A stretch of 64,000 bases of DNA from a virus: the IMG/VR virus record IMGVR_UViG_3300029049_000006; one strand, written 5' to 3'. Shown in pieces: positions 3,841 through 64,000 of the stretch (position 1 is its first letter; the number at the start of each line of letters is the position of its first letter). A model generated the notes under the pieces. It saw only the letters and a program-made list of their open reading frames with translations, did not search any database and was not told the DNA's origin. The translations under genes were made by a program, and so were the position numbers.

Positions 3841-3861
3841 AATTTGCAATGATTGCAAATT
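3841..3861. promoter_or_regulatory. 21-bp palindrome copy (AATTTGCAAT-G-ATTGCAAATT)
   Basis: Perfect inverted repeat directly after stop codon 3837-3839, upstream of capsid gene. Confidence 0.8.
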
Positions 3862-17746: not shown

Positions 17747-18799
17747 ATGATAACCTTAAACCATCTCGGAATATCCCACGCGGTCATCATTGCCCTGCCG
17801 GAACGTGCCGAACATGTTTCCCGGCTGAAAAACTCCATGATTGACGGAGGCATCGACCCGGAAAGCGGCGTTACCATACTCCCTGCCTGGAACGGTCGTG
17901 AGCTGCACCCCCCGAAAAGCTGGAAGGGGACCCGTGGCGCATGGGGCTGCGTACAGTCCCACATCCGGGCCTTGCGGCTCGCAGTCAAAAACAATTGGGA
18001 ATCAGTGCTCATTTTGGAGGACGACGCCATATTTTGCCGCAATGCCGCCGTCAGACTGCAAACGTTGTTTGCCGCTCTGCCGAAAGACTGGCGGTTGCTC
18101 TACCTCGGAGGCCACCACCAAAACTGGCCGAAAGAAGTCCACGCGGATTACATTTTGGCTTCCGGCATGACGGCCACCCACGCCTACATCGTCAAACGGG
18201 AATCCGTGCCCTGGCTTATCAAGCACATCGCCTATTATCCCGACTACGAACAACAGCAATGGGGCGTTGACCAGCAAATCCGGAACGCCGTCTATCGGGG
18301 CGACATCCTCCAATACGCCCCGCGCTGGAATATTGTAGGGCAACAGCGTCAGGAGTACAGCACCATTGCCCATTCCAGAGCCGGAAACCGGGAACGCTGG
18401 TGGGAGCATTCGCAAAACGACCAGTTCCGCCTGCTTCCGCTCGTACTTCTCCAAGAGCCGTTAACCGTGGAAGACGTTGACGGGCTTGAGGAACTGGTGG
18501 ACATCGCCCCGGAAAAAAGCGTTGAATCCCTTCTGGAAAAAACGGAAGACATGGCCGGCGCCATCATTGAAGCACTTTCCTACAGCGCACGGGGAGCGTT
18601 CAGCCACCGGCGCGTTCCCGCCCTGTATTACAGCGACCGGAAAGCTGCGGACAGATGCGCCCGCCTGTGGTCTGCGGAATGCCTGTTTGCCGAAGCCGGT
18701 GATTCCGACCAAACCAGGGAACTTCTCGTTACCGCCCTGCGCCGCGTTGTCGATTATGCGGAAAACCCGGATATGAACCCGGACATGGGCGAAAACTAA
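17747..18799 (+). CDS. glycosyltransferase family 25 (Lic2A/LgtB-like) with ~130-aa C-terminal extension
   Basis: HAVIIALPERAEHVSRL N-terminus; KGTRGAWGCVQSHIRALRLAV and LILEDDAIF match GT25 GEiGC.lSH / lEDD signatures. Confidence 0.7.
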   Translation: MITLNHLGISHAVIIALPERAEHVSRLKNSMIDGGIDPESGVTILPAWNGRELHPPKSWKGTRGAWGCVQSHIRALRLAVKNNWESVLILEDDAIFCRNAAVRLQTLFAALPKDWRLLYLGGHHQNWPKEVHADYILASGMTATHAYIVKRESVPWLIKHIAYYPDYEQQQWGVDQQIRNAVYRGDILQYAPRWNIVGQQRQEYSTIAHSRAGNRERWWEHSQNDQFRLLPLVLLQEPLTVEDVDGLEELVDIAPEKSVESLLEKTEDMAGAIIEALSYSARGAFSHRRVPALYYSDRKAADRCARLWSAECLFAEAGDSDQTRELLVTALRRVVDYAENPDMNPDMGEN

Positions 18800-18821: not shown

Positions 18822-19862
18822 ATGGATTATTTATTTCCGCATTATTTTGACCGTATTGTCGTCATCAATCTCGCCAAAAACCCCGAACGGTTCACCCGCA
18901 TTGCCGACGAGCTGAAACATAAGTGCCTGGCCGGGCCGGATGATATTGTCAGGCATGAAGCCGTGCATGGGGATTCCATGCCGCACCCGGCATGGTACAG
19001 GGCCGGAAACGGAGCATGGGGGTGCTTGTCCAGCCACATTGAGGCGCTGGAAGATGCCTGGAACACCGGAAGCGAACATACTCTGATTATTGAGGATGAC
19101 ACCGTATTCGCCGACGACCTTTTGACACGGTTCCCGGAAATCATGAAAGAAGTTCCGAAGGAATACGGGCAGTTGTATCTTGGAGGCCAGCACCAACAGG
19201 CCCCGGAAGCCCTGTCTGACACGTTGTGGCGCGGCACGTCCATCAACCGGACGCACTGCTACGCCGTCACCCGGAAATTCATTCCGGAAATCCTCGCCCA
19301 TATCATGGACTGGGACACCCACATCAAGGCTGCGGGAAACCCGCTCCATATCGACCACACGCTGGAAATCGGACACCAGCGCCGGTACTGGCCCGTGTTC
19401 TGCCCCCGGTTCTGGTTCGCGGGACAGGGAGAAAACCAGTCCGACATCAACGGCAGGCCGCAGCGGGAAATGTGGTGGGAATACTCCGTGAAACAACAGC
19501 ACCTGGAACTTCCCCTGCTTGTGCTACGGACCGTTGACACGCCAAAACATATTAAAGGCCTTGTGTTTGCCGGTTGGCCGACAGATTTAGACGCCCGTGG
19601 CGTGAATAAAAAGATTGAGGATGCCAAAAAAGACAAGGCCACTCTGCTTCGGGAAATAAGCTGGCTGGCTTACGTGGGATTCCAGCACCACAGCCTTCCG
19701 GCGGTGTATCTTCCGGAGCCGGAACCTATCAGCGAGCTGCAACGCCTGTGGTCCGGGGAAGTCGTTGACACAGCCCGCATGGATGACGCGGACATTCACC
19801 GGATGCACCGCATTCTGGAATTCGCCAGCAACCCGGAGATGCTAAAGTATAGGTTCCGATAG
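18822..19862 (+). CDS. glycosyltransferase family 25, paralog 2
   Basis: RIVVINLAKNPERF, GNGAWGCLSSHIEALEDAW, LIIEDDTVF; paralogous to 17747..18799. Confidence 0.7.
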   Translation: MDYLFPHYFDRIVVINLAKNPERFTRIADELKHKCLAGPDDIVRHEAVHGDSMPHPAWYRAGNGAWGCLSSHIEALEDAWNTGSEHTLIIEDDTVFADDLLTRFPEIMKEVPKEYGQLYLGGQHQQAPEALSDTLWRGTSINRTHCYAVTRKFIPEILAHIMDWDTHIKAAGNPLHIDHTLEIGHQRRYWPVFCPRFWFAGQGENQSDINGRPQREMWWEYSVKQQHLELPLLVLRTVDTPKHIKGLVFAGWPTDLDARGVNKKIEDAKKDKATLLREISWLAYVGFQHHSLPAVYLPEPEPISELQRLWSGEVVDTARMDDADIHRMHRILEFASNPEMLKYRFR

Positions 19863-22548: not shown

Positions 22549-25047
22549 ATGACATCACAAGAAAAATACATTCAAAAATTGGACGACATGTTCGCCAGCG
22601 CGGTGAGTGTCGTATTTACGCCAAGCCGTGAACCGCGCAGAACTGTAGAGGCTGTCAAGGCAATGGGGGCGCGGGACAATGTGCCGGTGTTCGTCTGGAA
22701 CGATGTGTACGGCTGGAAAGTCTTTACCGGACAGGACCGCACCGTAGGAGTCCCGGTTGACGCGGATTCCCCGGTAGGCAATTTTTATCAGGCGTTGCGC
22801 CGCATCCTGGGATTTAAAATCGGGGAAAACACCAGTAACGCGTCTTCCCGATTTGATTATGAAAAAGGCGCGGCGTATATCGTCATGGAGGGCACTAGCC
22901 CGCATCTTGGTTTGCTTCCAATGACGACAACTCTTCTCAAGGATTACGCCTATTCCTTCCCGGAAACGCTCATGAGCCTTGTGTTGATTACGTCGGAATC
23001 CTACACCATTCCGGAAGAGCTGGCCCACGACATTCTGGTTGTGGATTTTGACCTGCCGACAAAAACCGACTTGCGCCATGCATGGGAAAGCACCGTAGCT
23101 AATCAGTATGAGTCCAAGAACCTTCCGATTCCCGAAACCTATATTCCGGGGGACAGTGTGGATGCGCTTGTCAACGCGGCATCCGGCATGACGATTCTGG
23201 AAGCGGAAACTGCGTATTCAAGGGCTTTCACCCTTAATGACCGCCTGTTCCCGGATATTCCCGTTGAGAACCTTCTCGCGCAGGTACACCGCTCAAAGGA
23301 AGACATTGTGAAAAAGTCGCAGACGCTGGAAATGGTTAACCCCATTCCGGTTGATTCCATTGGCGGCCTGGAATTGCTGAAAGACTGGTTTATCACGCGG
23401 TCGGTATGTTTCAGCGAAGAGGCCCGCAAGGCGAAAGTTGATGCGCCTAAAGGCGTAGCCCTTATCGGGCCGCCTGGATGTATTGCCGCGCATACTGTCC
23501 TGCGTTACCGCCGTGGGAAGCGCAACAGCTCCCGTCAGATTACTGCGGAACGCCTGTATGCGAGATTCAACGGCCTTGAGGCGAATCCGGCGTGGTCATG
23601 GGACAATCAGCAGACTTACCTGCATTCTTACGACGTGAATACGGGCCGTGTCATGTACAACCGGGTTGAGGCCGTTACCGACGCCGGAGAAAAAGAATGT
23701 CTCCGCATCACGCTGTCCGACGGCTCAAGCTTTACTGCGTCCAGGAAGCACCCTGTATTGACCCCGGAAGGGTTTAAGCCGTTGCAGGAGATAGCCGCCG
23801 GTGATACGGTCCTGTCAAAAACAGATTTGCGTCCACGCAGGGCAGGCAAAAAAGCGGAGCGTCCGGAGCGGAAAACGGTCGAAGGCCTGAAATACTACTC
23901 TTCCGGGTGGAGGCACGCCGCCAACGGATGCGAGTACCGCAGGCAGCACCGCTCCCGGCTGGTCGTCGAGGCGTCGATGAACCGTCTGGACTACGATGAA
24001 TTCGTGCGTCGCCTTAAAACGGACCCGTCGGCATTGTGCCTTAAAGTGCTTGGACGTGAATACGACGTGCACCACATTGACGGGAATCCCATGAATGACC
24101 GCCTGGATAATCTACTGGTCATCCACAGAGCTGACCACAAAACTTTACACCACCATTCAGGTCAGGATAAATTCAACATCCAGTTCACAAAATCATTGCA
24201 GGTTGTCGCTGTCGAGGACGCCGGGGTTCAGCATTGCTTTGACATCCAAATGGCCCAGCCGTTCGACAATTTTTGCGTCGAATCCGGGCTCATTGTGCAT
24301 AATACGGGTAAGTCGGTATGCTCCAAGGCGGTGGCATCCATTCTCAATCTTCCCCTCGTGCGGGTGGATTTGGGGCGGCTGTTCGGGTCTCTCGTCGGCC
24401 AGACGGAAGCCCGTACCCGCACCATGTTGAAGGAATTGGAAGCTATGGCCCCCTGCATTGTCTGGGTGGATGAAGTTGACAAGGCGGGCCTGTCTTCCGG
24501 GGCTAATGGAGATTCCGGCGTATCTTCCCGCCTGCTGGGTTCTCTGCTGACCCACATGTCGGAAAACGAGTCCGGTTTGTTCTGGATTTTCACCGCCAAC
24601 CGGACGGAAAACCTTCCGTCGGAATTCTTGCGGAAGGGGCGGCTGGATGAAGTCTTTTCCGTCCTGCCTCCGACTTGGGCTGAACGCCGCCAGATTTTCG
24701 ATATCCACTTGAGCAAGCGCGGAATCAATATTGATGATATTGTTGACTTTGACCAGGTGCTGACGGAAAGCCGGGGATTCGTGTCTGCGGAAATTGAAGC
24801 CGCGTGCAAGGAAGCGAAAGTGCTTTCTTTTTATCGGAACGTTCCGGTTACGAGCAGCCTTTTGCGGTCCACCCTTAAAGGCATCATTCCAATTTCGGAA
24901 GCGTACAAAGACCAGTTTGACGCTATGACCGAGTGGGCGCAGAATAACGCGAGGCCGTCTTCCGAGCAAGAGGTTGACGTTGATGCTTCCAGCCCGCTTC
25001 CGTCCAGCATTCCGGAATCGTTGCGTGCCCGCCGCCGCAGGCATTGA
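22549..25047 (+). CDS. AAA+ ATPase interrupted by an intein (557-aa host protein plus 275-aa intein)
   Basis: Walker A split GVALIGPPG|C...HN|TGKS; downstream Walker B IVWVDEVDKA and AAA+ sensor region; N-terminal ~300 aa of unknown function. Confidence 0.7.
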   Translation: MTSQEKYIQKLDDMFASAVSVVFTPSREPRRTVEAVKAMGARDNVPVFVWNDVYGWKVFTGQDRTVGVPVDADSPVGNFYQALRRILGFKIGENTSNASSRFDYEKGAAYIVMEGTSPHLGLLPMTTTLLKDYAYSFPETLMSLVLITSESYTIPEELAHDILVVDFDLPTKTDLRHAWESTVANQYESKNLPIPETYIPGDSVDALVNAASGMTILEAETAYSRAFTLNDRLFPDIPVENLLAQVHRSKEDIVKKSQTLEMVNPIPVDSIGGLELLKDWFITRSVCFSEEARKAKVDAPKGVALIGPPGCIAAHTVLRYRRGKRNSSRQITAERLYARFNGLEANPAWSWDNQQTYLHSYDVNTGRVMYNRVEAVTDAGEKECLRITLSDGSSFTASRKHPVLTPEGFKPLQEIAAGDTVLSKTDLRPRRAGKKAERPERKTVEGLKYYSSGWRHAANGCEYRRQHRSRLVVEASMNRLDYDEFVRRLKTDPSALCLKVLGREYDVHHIDGNPMNDRLDNLLVIHRADHKTLHHHSGQDKFNIQFTKSLQVVAVEDAGVQHCFDIQMAQPFDNFCVESGLIVHNTGKSVCSKAVASILNLPLVRVDLGRLFGSLVGQTEARTRTMLKELEAMAPCIVWVDEVDKAGLSSGANGDSGVSSRLLGSLLTHMSENESGLFWIFTANRTENLPSEFLRKGRLDEVFSVLPPTWAERRQIFDIHLSKRGINIDDIVDFDQVLTESRGFVSAEIEAACKEAKVLSFYRNVPVTSSLLRSTLKGIIPISEAYKDQFDAMTEWAQNNARPSSEQEVDVDASSPLPSSIPESLRARRRRH
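23479..24303 (+). mobile_element. intein with HNH homing-endonuclease domain inserted in the P-loop
   Basis: Starts Cys (TGT 23479), ends ...GLIVHN (AAT 24301-24303) followed by Thr+1; block B TASRKHPVLT; block F/G HCFDIQMAQPFDNFCVESGLIVHN; HNH motif EYDVHHIDGNPMNDRLDNLLVIHRADHKTLHHH; excision restores GPPGTGKS. Confidence 0.7.
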
Positions 25048-46155: not shown

Positions 46156-46758
46156 ATGAAACCCGCTATGCAATCTCAAATGACTGATTTACTGCACGAC
46201 GCTGACCGCCTTTCAGAAGAGGCATATCGTTCCCGGCTGCGCTATCTGGGCAGGCTGGTTGATTCGCCCCAGAATGCCCCCATAGTGCGGAAAGTGCGGA
46301 ATATGGGCGCCAAACGCTGGAACAGCCTGATTCAGCTCGTGCATAACGTGTGCATTGCTTCCGACGAGCCTCTGGGGCTTCATGACCGGAACTGGCTGGA
46401 ATCGGCATTAGGCTACACAGCGTTGCATGTGTTTATTTCCGCCGGAAACCGAAGGCTGATGTTTATCCAGATTATGCTGGACGAGCTGTTTTCCGGGCGG
46501 GAATTCGCGGGCTTTGACCGCATCATCGCCCTTGTGGCCAAAGAGGCCCCCATTGTATATAATGGTTCCGGGCTTTATTACCATATCCCCCCGGTAATCC
46601 GTCAGGAGCTGGAATTAAACGCGGGAAGGGGAAGCGGCGCCAGCGTCCGGAAAAATCTGGAAGACAGCATCCGGCATTTGGACGGCATCAGCCGGAAATG
46701 CACGGGTGTTCCCGTCATCACCCATATGCTTTACTATGGCCTCCGTTTGTTCTCCTGA
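46156..46758 (+). CDS. hypothetical protein
   Basis: 200 aa. Confidence 0.4.
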   Translation: MKPAMQSQMTDLLHDADRLSEEAYRSRLRYLGRLVDSPQNAPIVRKVRNMGAKRWNSLIQLVHNVCIASDEPLGLHDRNWLESALGYTALHVFISAGNRRLMFIQIMLDELFSGREFAGFDRIIALVAKEAPIVYNGSGLYYHIPPVIRQELELNAGRGSGASVRKNLEDSIRHLDGISRKCTGVPVITHMLYYGLRLFS

Positions 46759-47509
46759 TTCCCGGCCCGTTGAGGGCAGTCTGGTAAAACCGGGCTTTTA
46801 CTCTGTGCTGGAAAAATTGCCGCTGGAATACATAGGCCCCTCCGAACGGTTTTTCCTGTGGTTGGAATTTGCTTTTTCCGTCATGTCCGGAACGCCCCTG
46901 AATTCTTCCGTTACCGAAAAAATGAGCGCGGGAAGGGAAGGTTATGAGGCTATCCAGCGCGGGTTTCTGGACTGCATCAGGCTTCTTGGGGACGACATGG
47001 AGCGGAAGCCCTATGAAGACCTGCTGGGAGGTTACCATGAAATGTTGAACAGTCAGATGACCCGGACGGCAAACGGTCAATTTTATACCCCGATGCATGT
47101 CTGCCGTCTTATGGCTAAAATCACCGTATCGGAACAGCTCGTGGAAAAACTGAAACTTGGGGAAGTGATAAAAATGAACGAGCCCGCCTGCGGCTCCGGG
47201 CGCACTATGCTTGCCGTAGCGGAAATACTTTCCGAACACCGCTCCAAGATGCGTGTGATTTGCACCGACATCGACATCCGGGCCTGCTGGATGTGTTTCA
47301 TCAACTTGACTATGTGGGGCATCCCGGCAACGGTCATCCACGGGGATACGCTGTCTGGGAAAGAGTGGGGGCGCTGGGTCAATATGTTTTGGTTGATTGG
47401 AGAGGCGGAAAGAAAACGCCAGCTCAAGGTCAAAAAAATTATAGACGCAGTGCAGAAGCTTTGCCCTGATGAACAAAATATTCCGGCATTTCCCCGGTGC
47501 AGAGACTAA
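46706..47509 (+). CDS. HsdM/N6-adenine-methyltransferase-like protein lacking catalytic motif IV
   Basis: GQFYTPMHVCRLMAKI (TP motif), NEPACGSGRTML (motif I), ICTDIDIRACWMCFINLTMWGI; no NPPF/DPPY downstream before stop; start may be ATG 46883. Confidence 0.45.
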   Translation: MFPSSPICFTMASVCSPDSRPVEGSLVKPGFYSVLEKLPLEYIGPSERFFLWLEFAFSVMSGTPLNSSVTEKMSAGREGYEAIQRGFLDCIRLLGDDMERKPYEDLLGGYHEMLNSQMTRTANGQFYTPMHVCRLMAKITVSEQLVEKLKLGEVIKMNEPACGSGRTMLAVAEILSEHRSKMRVICTDIDIRACWMCFINLTMWGIPATVIHGDTLSGKEWGRWVNMFWLIGEAERKRQLKVKKIIDAVQKLCPDEQNIPAFPRCRD

Positions 47510-48095
47510 CAAAAAAATGAAAGCTAAGAAAAGAGTATTTAACCCGGAAATGCGGGAAGAAATCCGCACGTTTATTACCGACATGATTAGCCGGGGGGCG
47601 GCCTATAATTCCATTGATTTTATCCTGGATTCCCTGGCCGACGATATTAAATCCCTCCGGGAATCCCCAGACTTGTCGCGGAAAGCGGAAACGGAAACCG
47701 CCATTGCCTGGTGTGAGGAACTTTGCAAGCATATTGCGCGTTTGCGCGGAAAATATAACTCCGTAAAAAATCCGTATGACGAAGGTCTGGCGGCCTGCAA
47801 CGTATTGGCTCAAATCAGGATAGACTTGTTGGAACGGTCCACCTCGAAAGAATTTCACCGTAATAACAGCCCGGACGGGAAGACACCGCGGTCAAGCCCT
47901 AATATCAATTATGAGCTTTGCATCGCCATCACGTCCGCTGCGATAAATAATCTGTACCGTCAGATTGATGCGGCGGTGAATTTGCATAACATGAATATCC
48001 TCCTGGGCTTTTACGACGACATCCAGAATGACCGAATCACGCCCCATCTTACCGGATGGGGAGGAAGCCCCGCCGGGGAACCTGAAACCCGTTAA
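47469..48095 (+). CDS. hypothetical protein
   Basis: Alternative start 47517. Confidence 0.4.
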   Translation: MNKIFRHFPGAETNKKMKAKKRVFNPEMREEIRTFITDMISRGAAYNSIDFILDSLADDIKSLRESPDLSRKAETETAIAWCEELCKHIARLRGKYNSVKNPYDEGLAACNVLAQIRIDLLERSTSKEFHRNNSPDGKTPRSSPNINYELCIAITSAAINNLYRQIDAAVNLHNMNILLGFYDDIQNDRITPHLTGWGGSPAGEPETR

Positions 48096-54309: not shown

Positions 54310-54630
54310 ATGAAACTGACGCCTGAACAGAAAGTATTTATCGAATACGGAAAAGCAAAGAAAGCTCTTGAGATAGCTAAAAAGCAATTAGCGAAAGAAA
54401 TGCGCCGGTATTTATCCCGGCATCAGGCGCGGGATTATAATAATATTGATATTTTAATCCGGGATGTCTGGCGGAAGCGTGCCGCGTGCAGGGACTGGGT
54501 GGCAGTCCCTCTGGCGAATCGTAATTGTGAGAATTGCGCTAATAGCGTAGTTAATCCGATTCCGGAAGTTTGCAAGATTTGCATGATGACTAACTTTTCC
54601 GGCTGGGAACCTATAAAATGGAATAAATAA
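54310..54630 (+). CDS. zinc-ribbon protein, tandem paralog 1
   Basis: N-terminal TPEQ..F.EYGKA; C..W...P...R.C..C-x11-C..C; ends WEP. Confidence 0.5.
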   Translation: MKLTPEQKVFIEYGKAKKALEIAKKQLAKEMRRYLSRHQARDYNNIDILIRDVWRKRAACRDWVAVPLANRNCENCANSVVNPIPEVCKICMMTNFSGWEPIKWNK

Positions 54631-54631
54631 A

Positions 54632-54982
54632 ATGACACCTGAGCAAGAAACATATAAAGAATATGGAAGGGCGCAAGAAGCCCTTCATCAGACAATCAAG
54701 GAGATAAAAAAAGAATCCTTTTTTACTTTTGGGAAGCCATATTGCAAGCTTACGAAGTTGGAAAGGGAGAGTATATCCCATGCTTTGGGTTTATGCGATA
54801 AAGTCCGCTATGTCCGCAAAATGCGTACCGCATGCCGGACATGGGCATTCACGCCCATGAACAAACGCTATTGTGATGACTGTCGATATTACTGCACATC
54901 CGTCTCGGATGGCCCCTGCAGAGAATGTTGCCGGCGGCTGGAACCTGTAAATTGGGAACCTAGAAAGGAGAACAAAAACTAA
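54632..54982 (+). CDS. zinc-ribbon protein, tandem paralog 2
   Basis: Same architecture; starts 2 nt after paralog 1 stop. Confidence 0.5.
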   Translation: MTPEQETYKEYGRAQEALHQTIKEIKKESFFTFGKPYCKLTKLERESISHALGLCDKVRYVRKMRTACRTWAFTPMNKRYCDDCRYYCTSVSDGPCRECCRRLEPVNWEPRKENKN

Positions 54983-55353
54983 TGAAAATGACACCTGAAC
55001 AAAGAGCCTTTTTTGAGTATGGGAAAGTACAAGGAGTTGTCGAAGATACGGAAATCGAGATTAACCTTGCCTCCCCTAAAGGGGGTATGCCGCCTATAAC
55101 GTTTAATAAGGAGTTTTCTTTAAAAGAGGGCAAAAAACTAGCCGAGAAAAAACAGGAGATATGTCTGGGCTGGGCAATTCCATACCGCAAAAGGCGGTGC
55201 GTAAACTGCCTGCACCGGAAAACGCGTTCATGTGACCCTCCATGTGATTTGTGCTTCCGTAATGTTAAAGGCGGCTTATTCGACTGTTCGGACAGGGAGG
55301 GTAAAGAAGAATATGGGGATTTCTGGGAGCCGGAAACCGGGAAGGAAGAATAA
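54982..55353 (+). CDS. zinc-ribbon protein, tandem paralog 3
   Basis: Same architecture; TAATGA junction. Confidence 0.5.
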   Translation: MKMTPEQRAFFEYGKVQGVVEDTEIEINLASPKGGMPPITFNKEFSLKEGKKLAEKKQEICLGWAIPYRKRRCVNCLHRKTRSCDPPCDLCFRNVKGGLFDCSDREGKEEYGDFWEPETGKEE

Positions 55354-55354
55354 A

Positions 55355-55468
55355 ATGATTGATGCAATCTCCAATATGCTGGGCATGGCTCTCATATTTA
55401 CCATAGCGTACTTGTCTTATTTAATCGGCAGGCAGGACGCTGGCAAAAATGAAAAAAGAAAGAAATGA
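55355..55468 (+). CDS. hypothetical 37-aa membrane peptide
   Basis: MIDAISNMLGMALIFTIAYLSYLIGRQDAGKNEKRKK. Confidence 0.25.
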   Translation: MIDAISNMLGMALIFTIAYLSYLIGRQDAGKNEKRKK

Positions 55469-55842
55469 AAAAGACTACTGAACAAACAGCCTTTTATTGG
55501 TACGGATTTTATAAAGCCTGCCTGAAATTAAAAATTAAAGAGGCCCGCAATTATGCTGAGTGTGAATACGGGAGGCAATACGGTGAGCTGGCATCAGCGG
55601 GGCGAGAAGAGTGCCTGGTATATGCCGGGGTCAGGTCTTACATTATTCTGACCCGAAGAGCACGCCGCTCATGCCGGTTATTTGGCATACCCAGCGCTGA
55701 ACGGTCATGTGTTAATTGTGCGTATGTCGATTTATTGCATTACCAGCCGCCATGTAATAATTGCCTTCGTTCCCCGTATGCCGTGCATGGAGAAACAACC
55801 GACGATGCCTGGAAGCCGACTGGAAAATGGCAAATTCCATAA
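55465..55842 (+). CDS. zinc-ribbon protein, tandem paralog 4
   Basis: Same architecture; ATGA overlap. Confidence 0.5.
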   Translation: MKKTTEQTAFYWYGFYKACLKLKIKEARNYAECEYGRQYGELASAGREECLVYAGVRSYIILTRRARRSCRLFGIPSAERSCVNCAYVDLLHYQPPCNNCLRSPYAVHGETTDDAWKPTGKWQIP

Positions 55843-56765: not shown

Positions 56766-58256
56766 ATGCACCAGGACACCGACGCAGAAAATGCCGCCAG
56801 TCAGAGCCGGTTGAACGAAACCGCCATGCTGATTCCCCGGCTGCTGTTAAAAGCCCGTACTGATTTTATTGCATTTTTGCTTGCCATTTCCGACGACGAA
56901 TCCGGCTACATCCTGTCCCGAATGCACCTGTTTATTGCGGGCAAGCTCAATGATACCGTCACCCGGAAGGACGTGCCGAGGAATTACACTATTTCCGTAC
57001 CACCCCAGCACGGGAAGTCCTCCCTGATTGTGCGGTATGTCGCGTGGCTGGTTGGGTCTTATCCCAGATTGTGCGTTGCCCTGACCGGCTTCTCCGCTGA
57101 ATTGATGGGTCAGATGCTCCGGCAGGTCACATCCATTATGGATTTGCCCGTGTACCAGGTAATTTTTCCCGGAGTGAAAGTGAAGCCGAAGGATGACCGC
57201 TGGGACTATAAACGGTTCACCAATGACGCTATTATTTATGCTAAGCCGGCAGGCTCCAAGCTGACCGGGAGGCGGGTGGACATCCTCATTATTGACGACC
57301 CCCATGCCGGACGTGCCGAAGCCGAATCCCCCACTATCCGCAACCGCGTTGTGCAGTGGGCAGTTGCAGACTGCTTTTCCCGCCTTTCGCCTCATTGGCG
57401 GGTGTTTGTCATTGGAACCCGGTGGCATCCGGAAGACCTCATTGGACATCTCACCGGGCGGGAATACAATAAACGGCTTGAAATGCTTGGCAATACCGCC
57501 ATGAAATTTGAAGTCATCAAGATTCCCGCTATCTGCGAAGACCCGGCTACCGACCCCCTGGGGCGGAAGGCTGGGGAAGTAGCATTCCCGGAAGAGCGTG
57601 ACTTGGAGTTTTTAACATCCATCCGTGGGGCCATGACTACGACAGAATGGAAATCCCAGTATCAGCAGGAGCCGGTCACGTCCAAGGGCGGGCAGGTCAA
57701 CGCGGACGATTTTAACCTCATTTCCCCGGAGGAAGTGCCGTGGAGCGAGCTGACGGCCATAGGCTCCGGCTGGGACTTGGCCGCAACCGACAAAACGGCA
57801 TCCGACTGGACCGTGGGCGCATGCGGGGCGCGGACAAAGGATGGCCGCCTGTATATTTTCGACCAGTTCCGCAGGCAAATGCAGATTCCAAAACTGCTTC
57901 CGGCCATTGAAGCCCGCGCCCTGGCGTGGAAAGATATGTACGGGGCCAATCAGCTGGGCGTGGAAGGCGTGGGGGGCATGGTGGGGTATTATCAGCAGCT
58001 CCGGCAAATGCTCCTGGGAAAAATCAGCGTGCGGCTCAAAAATCCCCCGGTCAAAGGAGGGGGAAAACTGGTGCGGGCGCAAAACTGGCTGGCTCTGGTG
58101 GAGGCAAAAAAAGTGTATCTGGTACAGGCTCCCTGGGTGCGGTCGTTTCTGGAAGAGGTGGAAGTATTCCCGGACGGGGACCACGATGACCAGGTGGACA
58201 GCGTATCCATTCTTTACGAGCTTCTGTTTCTCTCCGCCCGCATTCTGGTCGGATAG
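56766..58256 (+). CDS. terminase large subunit
   Basis: PQHGKSS P-loop, VDILIIDDPH Walker B, VIGTRWH, C-terminal RNase-H-like nuclease with DLAATDK and DHDDQVDS. Confidence 0.8.
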   Translation: MHQDTDAENAASQSRLNETAMLIPRLLLKARTDFIAFLLAISDDESGYILSRMHLFIAGKLNDTVTRKDVPRNYTISVPPQHGKSSLIVRYVAWLVGSYPRLCVALTGFSAELMGQMLRQVTSIMDLPVYQVIFPGVKVKPKDDRWDYKRFTNDAIIYAKPAGSKLTGRRVDILIIDDPHAGRAEAESPTIRNRVVQWAVADCFSRLSPHWRVFVIGTRWHPEDLIGHLTGREYNKRLEMLGNTAMKFEVIKIPAICEDPATDPLGRKAGEVAFPEERDLEFLTSIRGAMTTTEWKSQYQQEPVTSKGGQVNADDFNLISPEEVPWSELTAIGSGWDLAATDKTASDWTVGACGARTKDGRLYIFDQFRRQMQIPKLLPAIEARALAWKDMYGANQLGVEGVGGMVGYYQQLRQMLLGKISVRLKNPPVKGGGKLVRAQNWLALVEAKKVYLVQAPWVRSFLEEVEVFPDGDHDDQVDSVSILYELLFLSARILVG

Positions 58257-58266
58257 GCCGTCAATA

Positions 58267-58289
58267 AAATTTGCAATGATTGCAAATTT
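58267..58289. promoter_or_regulatory. 21-bp palindrome copy
   Basis: AAATTTGCAATGATTGCAAATTT. Confidence 0.8.
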
Positions 58290-58608
58290 CAGAGACCGCG
58301 CCCAAAAGCTTTTTTCCTTTACTTTTCACTTTTCCGGCACAAACAATACCAGCCCATGAAGTTCCACAGCCTTTCCATGCTTTTTACGCTCCGTGGCCCT
58401 CCCCGCCCTGTTTTTCAGCTTGTCCCCCAGGCAATCCGCGAACGGTCGGATGCGCGAGGACGGGAACGCATCATTTCCCGCGTCTGAAATAAATGGCTTT
58501 CACCATCAGGCGCAATCTCCGCATTTCCTTTTTCTGTTGCCTTCGCCGGATTGCCCCCCCTCGTCAGGAAGGGAACGGCAAACCGTAACCATAAACAAAA
58601 AGATAGAA

Positions 58609-59484
58609 ATGACAGTTCAAACCTTACCGGCAACCGTGCCGGACAGCGTTTCTGCGACCTTGCGCGTCGTCATGAAGCCCGTGGAATCAATTCACCCCTA
58701 CGAAAATAACCCCCGCTACAACGACAGCGCGGTTCCCTACGTCAAAAACTCAATTCAGGAGTTCGGCTTCAAGGTTCCGATTATCGTCGATGAAGCCGGA
58801 AGCATTGTCTGCGGTCACACGAGGTACAAGGTGGCCCTGGAATTGGGCATGAGCCATGTGCCTTGCATTGTCGCTTCGGATTTGACCCCAAAGCAGATTC
58901 AGGCGTTCCGCCTTGTTGATAACAAGGTGTCGGAGTTTTCAAGCTGGGATTTTTCCAAACTTGAAATTGAGATAGGGGAGCTGGATGCCGAATTTAATCT
59001 TGATGACTTCGGTTTTTTCTCCGATTCAGAGCGGGCGGGAAGCTCGCCGGCGGATGTGGGCAGTGCCGCAGAAATGCAGGATGATACTGCGAGGGATGAC
59101 CGGAATATCTATACAGGACGCATCATTACTCCGGTTTATGAAATTACCGGGGATTGTCCAAAAACCGAAGAGCTGGTTGACCGCACCAGAGCGGAATCCC
59201 TGCTGGAAGAGATTGACCGGACCCCAGGGCTTCCGGATGCCGTGCGTGACTTTTTGCGTATTGCCGCCATGCGGCACTATGTCCTGCATTTCGACAGGAT
59301 AGCCGAGTTTTACGCCCATGCGGTCCCTCCTGTGCAGCGGCTCATGGAAAACTCCTGTCTGGTCATTATTGATTATGACCGCGCCATTGAACTTGGATAT
59401 GTGCAAATGGCACGTGCCCTGGCCGATGAATATGACCGAGAATACCCGGAAGGGGAAGAACAGGAAGGAGGCAGCGAATCATGA
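58609..59484 (+). CDS. ParB-like nuclease-domain protein with conserved C-terminal domain (paralog A)
   Basis: IHPYENNPRYNDSAVPYVKNSIQEFGFKVPIIVDEAGSIVCGHTRYKVALELG matches ParB/Srx N-terminal domain (NPR...SI...G...P..V....G..R..A); C-terminal domain shared with 62638..63480. Confidence 0.6.
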   Translation: MTVQTLPATVPDSVSATLRVVMKPVESIHPYENNPRYNDSAVPYVKNSIQEFGFKVPIIVDEAGSIVCGHTRYKVALELGMSHVPCIVASDLTPKQIQAFRLVDNKVSEFSSWDFSKLEIEIGELDAEFNLDDFGFFSDSERAGSSPADVGSAAEMQDDTARDDRNIYTGRIITPVYEITGDCPKTEELVDRTRAESLLEEIDRTPGLPDAVRDFLRIAAMRHYVLHFDRIAEFYAHAVPPVQRLMENSCLVIIDYDRAIELGYVQMARALADEYDREYPEGEEQEGGSES

Positions 59485-60416
59485 TGCGGCACTCTGATTT
59501 CTGCGTCCTGATTATTTCCCATGGACGGGCCGGGAGGGTGAAAACCCTGAACGCGCTTGAGCGTTTTGGCTATAGCGGCCCCTGGTACATTATTATCGAC
59601 AATGAGGATTCACAGGCCGGGGACTACCTTAATTGCTATGGGAGTGACCACGTTGTTGTTTTTGATAAACCCCTTGAGGCATCCAGGCTGGACATAGCGG
59701 ATAATTTTACAGGCCGTCTTGGGCGCAAAAGTACCGTGTACGTACGCAATGCGAGCTTTGACATTGCCCGCCGCCTGGGATTCCGGTATTTCATGGTGCT
59801 GGACGACGATTACGACTATTTCCGTTTCGTATTGGACAGCAACCGCCGCTATACTTGCCGGCGCTGTACCTGTCTGGACACAATCCTTGACATCTGCCTC
59901 GATTACTTCACCCGTACACCGGCCCTTGCCACCATAGCGTGGCTTCAAGGCGGCGACCTGCTGGGAGGGGCCAACTCCAACAGCCTTTTCAGCCTCCGGC
60001 GAAAAGCCATGAACAGTTTTATCTGTGACACGGAACGCCCCTTTTCCTTCATGGGCCGGTTTAATGAAGACGTGAACACCTACATCACTCACGGAAACCG
60101 GGGAGTGATCATGTTCTCAATTACGGAATTGGCGCTTAACCAGGCCAGCACCCAGCAGACGACGGGAGGGATGACGGAAGCCTACCAGGAAAACGGAACC
60201 TACGTGAAATCGTTTTACAGTGTCATGCATATGCCGTCTGCGGTGAAAATCCGGACAATGGGCGAACATTACCGAAGAATCCACCATGCTATTACATGGA
60301 ATAATTGTGTGCCGAAAATCATCCGTCCGGAGTACCAGAAACCGGATATTGTGCGGGGTGACAGAAGAAAACGCGGCAGGAGCCGAAAAAAACTGCTTGC
60401 AATTCCGGCCCCTTAA
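59481..60416 (+). CDS. hypothetical protein with DxD-like LDDDY motif (possible GT-A-fold nucleotide-sugar transferase), paralog A
   Basis: FCVLIISHGRAGRV...WYIIIDNEDS...FMVLDDDYDYF pattern resembles GT-A strand-loop-DxD layout; ATGA overlap with ParB-like gene. Confidence 0.4.
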   Translation: MMRHSDFCVLIISHGRAGRVKTLNALERFGYSGPWYIIIDNEDSQAGDYLNCYGSDHVVVFDKPLEASRLDIADNFTGRLGRKSTVYVRNASFDIARRLGFRYFMVLDDDYDYFRFVLDSNRRYTCRRCTCLDTILDICLDYFTRTPALATIAWLQGGDLLGGANSNSLFSLRRKAMNSFICDTERPFSFMGRFNEDVNTYITHGNRGVIMFSITELALNQASTQQTTGGMTEAYQENGTYVKSFYSVMHMPSAVKIRTMGEHYRRIHHAITWNNCVPKIIRPEYQKPDIVRGDRRKRGRSRKKLLAIPAP

Positions 60417-60538
60417 TAGGATATTGCGATTGTTACCCGCCCAACGGGAACCCGACAACAACCAATAATAGCTGCTATCCAGAAAAGACAAGCCCCCGGC
60501 CCCTTCCTGCATCCCACCCGCGTATCGGATTGCCTGTC

Positions 60539-60928
60539 ATGTGTACTGCAGGAAACCGGGGGCTTGTTTTCTTTCCCCCCTCAGGGTATAACGGCGGCGT
60601 TATGATTGCCTTGAATACTCCTATTGCCACCATACCGGGGCGCCGGTACTGCATCACCACAGTATCTTCCGTCCAGGTGATTGCCGTCATTGACGACGAA
60701 GAGTTTGATTTGCTGGGGGGCCTTCCCATTACTGGCCAGGCGCAATTTGTCGCCCCCACGGACCACATTGAGGTGCGTGACGCGTCAGCCCCGGAAGAAG
60801 GGGCGGCGGCCAGCGCATCGGAATCATCCCCAGAAACGTCAAGCGTCATGTTTGACGGCTCTGCAACGCCCCTTGCCGGAGACGCGGCTTCCGTGTCCGG
60901 GAGCATCGTCGAAATTGTACGCAGTTGA
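60539..60928 (+). CDS. hypothetical protein
   Basis: In-frame ATG of ORF 60530..60928; opposite-strand ORF looks like an antisense artifact. Confidence 0.3.
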   Translation: MCTAGNRGLVFFPPSGYNGGVMIALNTPIATIPGRRYCITTVSSVQVIAVIDDEEFDLLGGLPITGQAQFVAPTDHIEVRDASAPEEGAAASASESSPETSSVMFDGSATPLAGDAASVSGSIVEIVRS

Positions 60929-61220
60929 CAAGCTATCCCGGATTTGGCAGGATGCTCCCTGCATGCGCGACGCGCTTCAAAGGCGTGGATTGAGGCGATA
61001 AGGGCATGCTTTCGCAGGGTGTATGTGTGGGAGACGTAATGAGCTCTCCCCTTCCCCTGCGGCAAACGGGAACAACAAAAAAGGGGATGCCCTTCCTTTT
61101 TTCCAGGATGGCCGCAGTTTTCCGCTGTGGGGAAAGAAGGAAGGGTATTTTTCCGCCTCCAATTTTTCTTTTTATTCTTTGTGCCTGATGCAGATTCCTC
61201 CCCCCCCTGATAAATTCCGA

Positions 61221-61979
61221 ATGCACTGTATCATTCCCCTGAAAGCACGCTCTATGCGTTGCCCAGGAAAAAATTTCAGAACCTGCAACCCGTATCTTTC
61301 CGGGGGCCTGATTCCGCTGTGGGAAGTGTCGGCCAGGTACGTCAGGGGCGAGGGATGGGAACCAGTTATTTCCTGTGACAGTCCGGAATTGTTGCATGAT
61401 ATTTCCCGGCGCGGATATGAACGCACTGTTTTATGGCATCCTGACCCGGAATCCCCATATATGCAGGGCCACATCAGTCAGGTTGCCGCGCAGATTAACG
61501 CCGGGGATTCCGACCTGCTTTGCGTAGTCCAGGCAACTTCCCCGGTAAGACGGCCCGGACTGCTTCGGGACATGCACACCTTGATGTCATCCGATACCAA
61601 TATTCAGGTGGCTTTTACAGGGGAACGCCTGAAAATTTGCGGCATCCTGAATGGCTCTCTTTTTGGGCAGGATGAAAGCCAGTCCGCCCGGCACTGGTAC
61701 GACCACTATGACGGGGCGCTTTTACTACTGCGCTATGATACTCTGAAACGCTGCCCCCCCCGAACAGTCGTGCATCCAGGGCTGCTGTCCGGCCCCAGTG
61801 ATAAAGTGGCCGTGTTTTACCAGACCCTGCCTTGGTCATTCCAAATCGACACGGAAGACGATTATTCCTTTTATCTGCAACTGCGGCGGCCTGATGCGGA
61901 AAAACAGTCAGCCTTCCGCAAACGGTCGAACCCGTACCGGGTATATACAAAAAGCGCAGCCCCTGATGAATTGGCATGA
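61221..61979 (+). CDS. CMP-sugar synthetase (acylneuraminate/KDO cytidylyltransferase family, CTP_transf_3-like)
   Basis: HCIIPLKARSMRCPGKNFRTCNPYLSGGLIPLWEV (ilAR.nSKglP.KNl...G.pLi); VISCDSPEL; LLCVVQATSPVRRPGLLRD (QPTSPLR). Confidence 0.65.
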   Translation: MHCIIPLKARSMRCPGKNFRTCNPYLSGGLIPLWEVSARYVRGEGWEPVISCDSPELLHDISRRGYERTVLWHPDPESPYMQGHISQVAAQINAGDSDLLCVVQATSPVRRPGLLRDMHTLMSSDTNIQVAFTGERLKICGILNGSLFGQDESQSARHWYDHYDGALLLLRYDTLKRCPPRTVVHPGLLSGPSDKVAVFYQTLPWSFQIDTEDDYSFYLQLRRPDAEKQSAFRKRSNPYRVYTKSAAPDELA

Positions 61980-62575
61980 TTGTATTGGTAGGAAATGCCC
62001 AGGAATCCGAACACCGGCTTAAAGACTGCTCCGCTTTTATTGATTCCGGCAAGCCCCGGCTGGTGGTGAGGGTGTCGAAAATGTGCAACTATGATTCCGG
62101 AAAAACCGGAACGCGCTGTGACTGGGTGTTCCTCAACCCTAATCCCATGTACTGGACCTTTCCGCCAGAGCGCCGCCATTGGAATGTGCTTGCCGGGGCC
62201 AGTAAAATCATCATCACCTATCCCCCTCCCGGAAGCCTGAAAGAAGGGCCTTGCATTCCTCCGTACTGGCAAAAGGAAGAATACCGGTTTCTGCACCAGC
62301 ACCCTTTTCTGGAATATTTGCCGGAGGCGGTGTTCCGGGAAGGGATGGACCGGCGGCTGACGACGTTCGGATTTGCCCTGTGGGTGCTTTCGCGGCGTTT
62401 CCCGCATGAGCAGATAGCCCTGCATGGGTGCATTACCTCGCAGAATGCGTGGCGCCGTGTCCGCTGGTGCCCCTGGCACAATGGCGTTGGCGAGTTTGCC
62501 CTGTATGCCAATCTGTCCCGGAACGGTCGGATTTTCAGGCTGGACGGCGGCGAATTATGCTTTAATGAGGATTGA
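61976..62575 (+). CDS. hypothetical protein, CstII/GT42 sialyltransferase-like (tentative)
   Basis: MIVLVGNAQES ~ CstII KKVIIAGNGPS; GTRCDWVFLNPNPMYW ~ GKKCKAVFYNPSLF; ATGA overlap with cytidylyltransferase. Confidence 0.35.
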   Translation: MIVLVGNAQESEHRLKDCSAFIDSGKPRLVVRVSKMCNYDSGKTGTRCDWVFLNPNPMYWTFPPERRHWNVLAGASKIIITYPPPGSLKEGPCIPPYWQKEEYRFLHQHPFLEYLPEAVFREGMDRRLTTFGFALWVLSRRFPHEQIALHGCITSQNAWRRVRWCPWHNGVGEFALYANLSRNGRIFRLDGGELCFNED

Positions 62576-62597
62576 AACCATGCTAAGAATCCATGAG

Positions 62598-62619
62598 AAT
62601 TTGCAATCATTGCAAATTT
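62598..62619. promoter_or_regulatory. 21-bp palindrome copy
   Basis: AATTTGCAATCATTGCAAATTT. Confidence 0.8.
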
Positions 62620-62637
62620 CAAAAATCATTTTTACAC

Positions 62638-63480
62638 ATGGAAATTGTAGATATTGCCGTAAAAGACCTGGTTCCTTACGATAAAAATCCGCGCCGTAAT
62701 GATGAAGCGGCCGTCAAGGTGGCGGAATCCATTAAACAGTTCGGCTTTAAGATTCCTCTTGTGGTTGACCGCAATAATGTTGTTGTCTGCGGACACACCC
62801 GTTTAAAGGCCGCAAAAAAGTTAAAGCTTAAAACTGTTCCTTGCATCCGGGCTGACGATTTGTCGGAAGACCAAATCAAGGCGTTCCGTCTGGTGGACAA
62901 TCGGACGGCGGAAATCGCCGAATGGGATTTTGCCCTTTTAGAAGAGGAACTGGCGGACGTGCAGCTTGACATGACCGCCTTTGACTTCGGTGGGCTTTTG
63001 CCGGAAGAAGAGGGTGGGGGCGAAAACGGTCAGACCTCGGCGGGGGCCGGAAATGGAAGGGAGGAAGAAAGTGCATTACCGGATTCGCAAACTGCGGAAA
63101 ATATGTACACGCAGCGCATCGTCACTCCGGTTTATGAAGTTACCGGGGATTGCCCGGAAGTGTCTTCTCTGGTGGACAAGGGCAAAGCGGAAGCGCTGCT
63201 GGAATCCATTGACCAAGCCCAGGAACTCCCGGATGATGTGCGGGAGTTTTTACGCATCGCCGCTGCCAGGCATTATGTTTTGCATTTTGACCGCATTGCC
63301 GAATACTACGCCCATGCCCCGGCCCATATTCAGCGGCTCATGGAAGATTCCTGTCTGGTCATCATTGATTTTAATAAAGCCATTGAGCAGGGATATATCC
63401 GCATGTCCGAACGGTTGGCCGCGCTGGCCAGCATAGACGAACAGGGCGCAACGGAAGAAGAAGACGAAGCGGGCGAATAA
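62638..63480 (+). CDS. ParB-like nuclease-domain protein (paralog B)
   Basis: LVPYDKNPRRNDEAAVKVAESIKQFGFKIPLVVDRNNVVVCGHTRLKAAKKL; C-terminal domain nearly colinear with paralog A. Confidence 0.6.
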   Translation: MEIVDIAVKDLVPYDKNPRRNDEAAVKVAESIKQFGFKIPLVVDRNNVVVCGHTRLKAAKKLKLKTVPCIRADDLSEDQIKAFRLVDNRTAEIAEWDFALLEEELADVQLDMTAFDFGGLLPEEEGGGENGQTSAGAGNGREEESALPDSQTAENMYTQRIVTPVYEVTGDCPEVSSLVDKGKAEALLESIDQAQELPDDVREFLRIAAARHYVLHFDRIAEYYAHAPAHIQRLMEDSCLVIIDFNKAIEQGYIRMSERLAALASIDEQGATEEEDEAGE

Positions 63481-63525
63481 CACAGGCCGCTTTGATTTTT
63501 TTACCGCAATAACTTTTCTTTTTTT

Positions 63526-64000
63526 ATGCTGACGCATTCCGATTTTTGTACGTTTATTTTGTCTCATGGGCGGCCAAATAACATCAGAACTCTGCACCCA
63601 TTGTTAAACACCGGAAACTACAGCGGCCCCTGGTACATCGTCATCGACAATGAGGACCCCACGGCGGAAACCTATTATCAGCTTTACGGCTCCAACCGGG
63701 TAATCATGTTTGACAAGGAGGCCGAAGCCCGCCGTCTGGATATTGCAGATAATTTCATCCACATGAGCCGCAAGACTATTACCTATGCTCGTAATGCCTG
63801 TTATGACATTGCCAGAAACTTAGGCTACACGTATTTTTGGCAACTGGATGACGATTATTGCCGGTTCCGGTACGTAACCGACCAGGCCGGAAAATACGTG
63901 TACCACAGCATCCGCCACATGGACGAGGCGTTGAACGCGACGCTTGATTATTATAAAAGCGTTCCTTCCCTGACCCTGCTGTCCTGGATGCAGGGCGGGG
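63526..64000 (+). CDS. DxD-motif protein paralog B, 3'-truncated at window edge
   Basis: MLTHSDFCTFILSHGRPNN...WYIVIDNEDP...FWQLDDDYCRF colinear with 59481..60416. Confidence 0.45.
   Translation, partial: MLTHSDFCTFILSHGRPNNIRTLHPLLNTGNYSGPWYIVIDNEDPTAETYYQLYGSNRVIMFDKEAEARRLDIADNFIHMSRKTITYARNACYDIARNLGYTYFWQLDDDYCRFRYVTDQAGKYVYHSIRHMDEALNATLDYYKSVPSLTLLSWMQGG

Follow-up and report, generated by a model that had tools for sequence, protein, structure and literature searches.

Positions 58609-64000 of a 64,000-nucleotide (nt) stretch of viral DNA, IMG/VR virus record IMGVR_UViG_3300029049_000006 (the window), contain two copies of a two-gene module in which a gene for a ParB-like protein is followed by a gene for a glycosyltransferase (GT) of the TET-associated glycosyltransferase (TAGT) family. 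The two modules, A and B, flank a pair of genes that probably encode a synthetase for cytidine monophosphate (CMP)-linked acid sugars and a matching transferase, and all of these genes are on the plus strand. Module A is directly preceded by the gene for the large terminase subunit (Terminase_6C, E = 6e-12; Terminase_6N, E = 1e-4), and module B runs past the end of the window (Table 1).

The original prediction for this locus described the two modules as paralogous gene for gene and placed beside the packaging genes. It gave the first protein of each module a ParB-like N-terminal domain, compared the partners to DxD-type GT-A sugar transferases and assumed a sugar-activation locus between the modules. 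All of these points are borne out by the analysis described here. The further claim that the function was unlike that of any known system has to be abandoned. The partners fall into a named family, TAGT (PF20691), and a link between ParB-like proteins and DNA modification has already been proposed, according to passages in PMC8256090 and PMC13229309 that cite it.

Table 1. Features of the ParB-TAGT locus and its immediate surroundings, in window coordinates (aa, amino acids)
Feature	Position	Strand	Remarks
Large terminase subunit, 496 aa	56766..58256	+	Terminase_6C/6N; ParB-TAGT pair similarly placed in other phages
Palindrome copy AAATTTGCAAT(G/C)ATTGCAAATTT	58267..58289	.	18-copy intergenic element
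ParB-like A, 291 aa	58609..59484	+	N-domain ~18-140, acidic linker, C-domain ~165-270; phrog_620 full-length, 8e-55
TAGT-A, 311 aa; GT-A family PF20691, basic C-terminal tail RGDRRKRGRSRKK	59481..60416	+	Start overlaps ParB-A stop by 4 nt
Conserved 108-aa open reading frame; C-terminal half acidic, Ala/Ser-rich	60602..60928	+	Called in most related contigs
Poly-C tract, C8 (C7-C10 across 9 genomes)	61200..61207	+	14 nt upstream of ATG 61221
Probable divergent CMP-nonulosonic/ulosonic acid synthetase (NeuA/KdsB-type), 252 aa	61221..61979	+	Alternative start 61188 gives 263 aa
Second poly-C tract, C8, inside synthetase gene	61754..61761	+	C9 in contig L003
Minimal protein with predicted sialyltransferase fold, 199 aa	61976..62575	+	4-nt overlap with synthetase (translational coupling)
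Palindrome, second local copy	62598..62619	.	18-copy intergenic element
ParB-like B, 280 aa	62638..63480	+	PF02195 30.5 bits; three-part architecture like A
TAGT-B, N-terminal 158 aa in window	63526..64000	+	PF20691 5e-22; complete gene in contigs L002-L009

The ParB-like proteins of the two modules are 48% identical in an end-to-end alignment (E = 1e-89, pairwise protein comparison). TAGT-A and TAGT-B are 51-54% identical, with 51% over all 158 positions of TAGT-B inside the window (E = 3e-56), the complete TAGT-B being a protein of 287 residues in near-identical contigs, equivalent to window coordinates 63526-64389. At the DNA level, only short patches of the modules can be aligned (72-90% identical), and the duplication must therefore be old. 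The data do not support a recent duplication within this lineage, since protein identity reaches no more than 48-54%, with TAGT-A hardly nearer to the group of TAGT-B than to unrelated homologs. There is a 4-nt overlap between the two genes of module A and another between the two sugar genes that separate the modules (61976-61979).

The locus is widespread and stable. Positions 58000-64000 are collinear in eight independent metagenome contigs of 85-90 kb that are 96-99.98% identical, and the index of the assembly collection has the exact TAGT-A protein in 146 blocks and the exact ParB-B protein in 287. The names of the samples that yielded the near-identical contigs in these exact-protein look-ups suggest human-gut cohorts. 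No annotated phage close to the window at the DNA level was found. A genome of about 89.5 kb was reconstructed by fetching the flanks with proteins of the window and joining them to an IMG/VR contig.

Both transferases belong to PF20691, with E-values of 1e-27 for TAGT-A and 5e-22 for TAGT-B and scores of 97.9 bits and, for the partial TAGT-B, 79.2 bits against a cutoff of 27.5. In the PHROG collection, the TAGT match is to phrog_842 at 9e-63. The GT-A motifs R...DDD...ED are intact: when A and B are aligned with four phage homologs, R16, D108-D109-D110-Y111 and E196-D197 do not vary, and the third motif reads NEDVNTY, with its aromatic residue displaced. PF20691 is a large family, with at least 3847 protein clusters at E <= 1e-10, most of them stand-alone proteins of about 285 residues. 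No solved structure related to the TAGTs by sequence was found, the only matches being spurious ones to de novo designed TIM barrels.

TAGTs have a GT-A fold and include the transferase of phages T2 and T6 that adds a second glucose to glucosyl-5-hydroxymethylcytosine (5hmC), forming gentiobiosyl-hmC (PMC13216743, PMC13390438). GT-A enzymes from metaviromes that act on 5hmC resemble JGT, the trypanosome base-J glucosyltransferase, and carry the motifs R...DDD...EDY/F (10.1101/2023.12.21.572611). GREB1, a eukaryotic relative, attaches O-linked N-acetylglucosamine (O-GlcNAc) to a protein (PMC7968844). Hundreds of phage genomes contain “solitary TAGT” genes, whose function is described as yet to be defined (PMC13216743). 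The enzymes described here match this family, share its R...DDD...ED signature and are likewise phage-encoded, cytoplasmic and part of a multi-enzyme sugar cluster. They differ from the characterized members in that no α- or β-GT, no TET-like 5mYOX enzyme and no hydroxymethylase were found in the genome, which groups this phage with the “solitary TAGT” phages (PMC13216743), and in that the TAGT is present as two copies that have diverged and are each paired with a separate ParB-like protein.

The N-terminal domains of both ParB-like proteins score above the PF02195 cutoff of 26.3 bits (28.1 for A and 30.5 for B), and a profile of these proteins finds the CTPase domains of Noc, Spo0J and ParB in the PDB at E = 7e-10 to 1e-8. 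The arginine of the phosphate-binding GxxR motif is conserved: the sequence GHTR (G69-H70-x-R72) does not vary among five homologs and is matched to GERR of Noc in the profile alignment. The N-domain is also near that of phage proteins in which ParB is fused to a DNA methyltransferase (phrog_498, 1e-36). Such fusions are enriched in prophages (PMC12704722).

The C-terminal domain, of about 110 residues, has no relative in Pfam or the PDB. Its conserved motifs, YT.KI.TPVYE.TG, FL..AA.RH, IAEYYAHA and LVIIDYD.AIE.GY, are shared in an alignment by proteins of E. coli phages, Lactobacillus phages and the Haloarcula virus HHTV-2. When the C-domain alone was used in a tblastn search, it was located directly upstream of a TAGT match in all 28 of 28 phage records, usually in overlapping genes. 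In Vibrio phage pv27, it even exists as a stand-alone protein of 139 residues, encoded before a TAGT gene and free of the ParB N-domain (E = 6e-30). Given this stand-alone form and the unbroken adjacency, the constant pairing is that of the C-domain with the TAGT, and the ParB-CTPase domain is an add-on. The C-domain may thus be the part that docks the glycosyltransferase.

The same gene pair is found directly upstream of TerS and TerL in Lactobacillus phage phi jlb1 and in lambdoid or Rac-like E. coli phages. Gut contigs have the order N6_N4 DNA methyltransferase(s), ParB, TAGT, TerS, TerL, and in another context, relatives are found among primase, exonuclease and helicase genes. In an unrelated gut contig (L021, 3004-12858), five N6_N4 DNA methyltransferase genes form an array in which a TAGT gene is embedded. 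The TAGT gene of this contig is preceded by genes for a CofD-like protein (2-phospho-L-lactate-transferase family) and a CofC-like nucleotidyltransferase, which appear to be a different donor-activation arm on the same transferase family.

In E. coli, the module is matched in 1567 of 5426 complete genomes (~29%), 889 of the matches being nearly full length. The pair is annotated there as ynaK (ParB/Srx) followed by a “GREB1-related protein” or a hypothetical protein, and usually occurs as a single chromosomal copy in a Rac-like prophage, with trkG on one side and the terminase genes on the other (for example, NZ_CP023820.1, 1563311-1564985). K-12 keeps only a truncated remnant, ynaK-ydaY. The E. 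coli pair has the same gene order, overlapping genes and position just upstream of TerS/TerL as the pairs in the window, with 49% identity in the TAGT and 45% in the C-domain, but it is single and has no CMP-sugar arm. Titles and abstracts of the literature on ynaK and prophages do not address the function of ynaK.

The three open reading frames (ORFs) between the modules have no direct Pfam or PHROG match, and word-indexed homolog searches of the proteins of the two sugar genes returned only unannotated relatives at >=69% identity. The first of the two sugar genes nevertheless appears to encode a CMP-sugar synthetase. By itself, the protein reaches E = 1 against the structure of PpNeuA, via the QATSP motif. 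However, when a profile of its close homologs is searched exhaustively with HMMER, 44 distant relatives are retrieved, the lowest E-value being 6e-15. Of 27 aligned sequences, 20 belong to the cytidylyltransferases of PF02348 (CTP_transf_3). A joint profile matches the CMP-N-acetylneuraminic acid (CMP-NeuAc) synthetase 1EYR over its full length at E = 1e-26 and synthetases of CMP-3-deoxy-D-manno-octulosonic acid (CMP-Kdo) over their N-terminal halves. The signatures expected of such enzymes (IIPxR/KxxSxxxPxKN, QxTSP and a C-terminal IDTxxD) are found as CIIPLKARSMRCPGKN (IIPxKxxSxRxPGKN), VQATSP and FQIDTEDD, at positions that are conserved in the alignment of the relatives; the nucleotide- and metal-binding motifs are present.

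In about 22 of the relatives, the cytidylyltransferase has at its C-terminus a fused domain that is homologous to the 199-residue protein encoded by the second sugar gene; one of these relatives also carries a GT10 fucosyltransferase. With an alignment that included the distant fused relatives, AlphaFold2 gave a confident model (predicted local distance difference test, pLDDT, 85; predicted template modeling score, pTM, 0.86), while four close homologs alone gave a pLDDT of 31. The model is structurally similar to solved sialyltransferases (GT29/GT42/Maf). The seven best PDB sequence matches of the profile are all sialyltransferases, although at non-significant E-values of 0.13-0.84. In these non-significant matches (E = 0.13-0.84), CxVxxN...IDSxDxVxRxN is aligned to sialylmotif L of ST3Gal-I and to the N-terminus of Cst-II. 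Because the protein scores similarly against the pyrophosphokinases MptE and TPK, which have the same fold, and against SteA, its donor and activity are assigned only tentatively. The fusion to a CMP-sugar synthetase in the ~22 relatives supports a CMP-sugar as donor. The middle locus thus probably consists of a CMP-acid-sugar synthetase coupled to a CMP-sugar-dependent transferase. It can be compared to the pairs of CMP-sialic acid synthetase and GT29, GT42 or Maf transferase of bacteria, from which it differs in that both proteins are far outside the curated families, with no direct Pfam match, that the transferase has only 199 residues, and that the genes are found inside a phage ParB/TAGT cassette.

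The synthetase gene contains two of only six G or C runs of at least eight in the 64-kb window, within 0.8 kb. The first tract is within the N-terminal extension of the alternative 263-residue form, and variation in its length accounts for the differing gene calls of 263, 252 and 239 residues. The second is the exact point at which two clusters of frameshifted proteins (P0013 and P0014), seen in many samples, diverge. Among nine near-identical genomes, nearly all indels between 60430 and 62630 are at homopolymers, the exception being a 27-nt insertion at 61042 in one contig. In Campylobacter, Haemophilus and Neisseria, phase-variable loci for surface glycans typically have poly-C tracts in their genes. 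The variation seen here may reflect slipped-strand switching of a capping sugar on and off, or homopolymer errors in assembly.

What might such a cassette do? The original prediction had suggested DNA or virion modification, and these are kept as the two leading interpretations. The first, ParB-assisted, post-replicative glycosylation of the phage’s own DNA, is given an even chance of being correct. It is favored because the characterized phage members of the TAGT family act on DNA, the N-domain has the ParB-CTPase fold and the C-domain is invariably adjacent to a TAGT in the phage records, and because the neighborhoods of the relatives are centered on DNA, with methyltransferase, primase, exonuclease and helicase genes. 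The middle genes add to this, since they seem to work as a pair, as their fusion in ~22 relatives indicates, and since acid sugars are not without precedent on DNA. There are reports of 5hmC that carries Kdo and of a DNA-glycosylation cluster that includes a cytidylyltransferase, which makes a CMP-sugar arm plausible in a cassette of this kind.

If the DNA is indeed the acceptor, the products of the cassette would build a glycan in the cytoplasm and hypermodify the phage DNA after replication, before or during packaging, presumably through late expression of the genes. Each ParB-like protein would be the cognate helper of the adjoining TAGT. Its N-domain might engage DNA in a nucleotide-gated way or render the duplex accessible, while the C-domain, on its flexible acidic linker, would dock the glycosyltransferase and form a complex with it. 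The two diverged pairs could differ in the sugar or linkage that they add, one of them supplying, for example, the first sugar and the other the second. An acid sugar similar to sialic acid or Kdo would finally be placed on the glycan as a cap by the synthetase and the sialyltransferase-fold enzyme, a step that could be switched on and off by the two poly-C tracts.

The closest functional parallel is a phage ParB homolog, reported in 2026, that activates its cognate thymine dioxygenase on double-stranded DNA (5mYOX176/ParB176; PMC13229309). ParB176 consists of an N-terminal domain that binds nucleotides and a C-terminal domain, lacks any obvious domain for binding DNA, and shows relative specificity for its cognate enzyme (PMC13229309). 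The proteins in the window are similarly encoded beside a putative DNA-modifying enzyme and have a nucleotide-binding domain, a linker and a C-domain with no detectable helix-turn-helix (HTH). A cognate specificity like that of ParB176 would explain why one ParB-like protein is kept per TAGT. The differences are that the partner here is a glycosyltransferase, that no 5mYOX was found in the genome, and that the C-domain is a distinct conserved domain tied specifically to TAGTs. The ParB-methyltransferase fusions of prophages (PMC12704722; phrog_498) provide a second parallel, with their related N-domain (1e-36) and their position in late regions near the terminase. There, however, the enzyme is part of the same polypeptide and transfers a methyl group, whereas here, it is separate, is proposed to be recruited by the dedicated C-domain and would transfer a sugar.

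Several observations weigh against DNA as the acceptor. No TET/JBP (5mYOX) enzyme and no thymidylate-synthase-like hydroxymethylase were found in the ~89.5-kb genome, which was scanned with Pfam on the ORFs of the window and the bridging segment and through precomputed Pfam hits for the flanking genes. PF12851, PF00303, PF11440 and PF09198 had no match in the scanned ORFs, although Pfam may miss divergent 5mYOX enzymes (PMC13229309), and no α- or β-GT was found among them. Since no enzyme that makes a hydroxymethyl group was found, O-glycosylation of 5hmC or 5-hydroxymethyluracil (5hmU), the only chemistry proven for the TAGT family on DNA, has no visible substrate. In the stretches of the small temperate phages with the pair that were examined, no acceptor-making enzyme was found either. 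The ParB-like proteins have no HTH beyond the N-domain that Pfam or the PDB profile could detect, and therefore no recognizable DNA-binding domain. GREB1, by acting on a protein (PMC7968844), shows that the TAGT family is not restricted to DNA. The genome’s other genes for glycosyltransferases (GT25, GT11 and a DxD GT), a sulfotransferase and the synthesis of 3'-phosphoadenosine-5'-phosphosulfate (PAPS) point to protein or envelope glycans. Finally, a sialylated and possibly sulfated glycan on DNA would add negative charge for packaging to overcome.

The lack of a recognizable 5hmC- or 5hmU-making enzyme leaves two alternatives, a new chemistry or an acceptor other than DNA. The former could mean that the pair glycosylates DNA with no hydroxymethyl handle, by direct transfer to a canonical base or a DNA end, with the second TAGT extending the glycan and a phase-variable, sialic-acid-like cap being added to it. 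This bolder version is considered improbable. If true, it would represent a chemistry not known for DNA, would explain the success of the pair in small temperate phages and would mean that this gut phage has sialylated DNA.

The main competitor of DNA glycosylation is glycosylation of protein, either of the capsid, portal or tail or of the packaging machinery, with the ParB-like proteins as acceptor-recognition or scaffold subunits. It is less probable. GREB1 is a protein O-GlcNAc transferase of the TAGT family (PMC7968844), and the genes are placed among late, packaging-related genes in a genome with no detected source of hydroxymethyl-pyrimidine for O-glycosylation of DNA. Other glycan genes are encoded close to structural genes. 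A GT11 gene (α-1,2-fucosyltransferase family; L010, 8805-9521) separates the portal region from the head genes shortly before the first position of the window, and two GT25 paralogs (17747-18799 and 18822-19862) follow a tail protein with BACON and viral-BACON domains (14723-17206). A sulfation cluster outside the window (L015, 4809-8694), on a segment that bridges the downstream and upstream flanks of the window, encodes Sulfotransfer_2, a PAPS_reduct/CysD-like protein, an EF-Tu-like/CysN-like GTPase, APS kinase and a DxD glycosyltransferase (Gly_transf_sug). Judging by these families, the phage encodes PAPS synthesis and a carbohydrate-type sulfotransferase. Together with the CMP-sugar arm, the fucosyl-, galactosyl- and sulfotransferases could give the particle a glycan that resembles mucin or mimics the host, which would be useful in the gut.

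Virion glycosylation in mycobacteriophages, in which phage GTs decorate capsid and tail proteins, provides a model for this. Neither ParB-like proteins nor the TAGT family are known to be involved in those systems. The relationships of the pair itself also speak against a protein acceptor. The N-domain is closest to the DNA-acting clamps ParB and Noc and to the ParB-DNA-methyltransferase fusions, the relatives of the pair are found among DNA methyltransferase and replication genes rather than structural genes, and the stretches of small temperate phages that were examined contain the pair but no further genes for glycans. In addition, every experimentally characterized phage TAGT/GT-A relative acts on DNA.

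A quite unlikely explanation is that the cassette modifies glycans of the host envelope or their precursors, or acts as a sink for activated sugars. It would thereby cause seroconversion or superinfection exclusion via lipopolysaccharide (LPS) or capsule sugars, and the ParB-like proteins would have an unrelated, regulatory role. The synthetase/transferase pair does resemble bacterial surface-sialylation genes, with relatives that are fused to GTs such as GT10, and the variable poly-C tracts resemble phase-variable surface-glycan loci. A sugar sink has been raised as a possibility for phage DNA GTs (10.1101/2023.12.21.572611). However, inspection by eye revealed no obvious hydrophobic membrane or export segment in any of the five proteins, and the strict coupling of the C-domain and TAGT to a ParB-CTPase domain and to terminase genes in many unrelated phages would be hard to explain.

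The palindrome is a separate matter. The original prediction noted a copy before each module, and these copies are present, but they are not specific to the modules. The sequence TTTGCAAT[C/G]ATTGCAAA occurs 18 times in the window, compared to an expectation of 0.06, and every copy is intergenic. About nine of the 18 copies share a conserved downstream sequence, TTTTTTC...TCTTGCAATTT. It is a genome-wide regulatory element and no part of the modules, and it probably marks the transcription units throughout the phage, as a promoter, an operator or a site of RNA processing. The palindrome is perfect, with the form (AA)ATTTGCAAT[C/G]ATTGCAAAT(TT), and is usually located a few bases past a stop codon. 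Its 17-nt core starts at 3843, 9867, 13882, 17677, 20526, 22498, 26296, 32623, 34732, 39922, 43752, 44485, 45539, 50072, 51812, 53009, 58270 and 62600. With its 18 intergenic copies dispersed in this way, the palindrome was rejected as a parS-like target of the ParB-like proteins. The presence of a ParB_N domain, of a perfect palindrome upstream of each gene and of an adjoining terminase might suggest an ordinary partition or packaging-site ParB, bound to the palindrome as parS or pac and next to the GT by accident, but this is very improbable: the features of a canonical ParABS system are missing, with no HTH in the ParB-like proteins, no ParA-type Pfam family in any ORF scanned across the reconstructed genome and a palindrome that is dispersed, while the C-domain accompanies a TAGT in 28 of 28 phage records and can exist in the absence of the ParB N-domain, and the overlapping genes are kept together from bacteria to haloarchaeal viruses.

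The gene families, the link of ParB to phage DNA modification and the problem of the “solitary TAGTs” are already in the literature. What is new is the TAGT-specific C-domain as a constant partner and the presence of two cognate pairs in one locus, with an embedded pair of genes for a CMP-acid-sugar synthetase and a sialyltransferase-fold protein with variable poly-C tracts, in a reconstructed genome in which no recognizable acceptor-making enzyme was found. The conserved, ParB-linked C-domain, always directly upstream of such a TAGT in the phage records, makes the function of solitary TAGTs testable, and the presence of the module in ~29% of complete E. coli genomes means that this can be done cheaply in E. 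coli. If DNA proves to be the acceptor, glycosylation would join oxidation as a DNA modification that ParB assists, and a new DNA-sugar linkage relevant to the evasion of restriction and CRISPR might be revealed. Whichever the acceptor, two ParB-TAGT pairs, a probable CMP-acid-sugar arm, fucosyl-, galactosyl- and sulfotransferases and PAPS synthesis represent an unusually rich glycan toolkit for a virus, in a phage that is prevalent in the human gut.

The remaining ORF between the modules, of 108 residues, is conserved and has no Pfam or PHROG match. A 307-residue minus-strand gene call in one related contig turned out to be an artefact of small indels, and no insertion is present there. By Pfam, the reconstructed genome encodes a family A DNA polymerase, DnaB, a primase-like protein, RecA, RuvC, RNase H and an N6_Mtase-domain protein. 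The last is encoded by a GTG-start ORF (46706-47509, plus strand) with an HsdM-like N6_Mtase domain and a match to phrog_5696, the only DNA-methyltransferase-like gene found in the window. A longer minus-strand ORF that overlaps it (46718-47584) is probably spurious. The BACON carbohydrate-binding domain of the tail protein hints at a host among the Bacteroidota. An AAA ATPase of 832 residues (22549-25047) contains an apparent intein with an HNH endonuclease between its ATPase segments (Intein_splicing, HNH_3). Upstream of the terminase region, there are four tandem genes (54310-55842) for small paralogous proteins of a family of 106-186 residues that start with M.(L)TPEQ..F.EYG. and are rich in cysteine, with CxxC motifs; a fifth member is encoded downstream of module B (contig L009, 12630-13190). 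A Cpn10/GroES homolog (L010, 2914-3264) and a protein similar to low-molecular-weight phosphotyrosine phosphatases (L009, 18537-19106) are also encoded.

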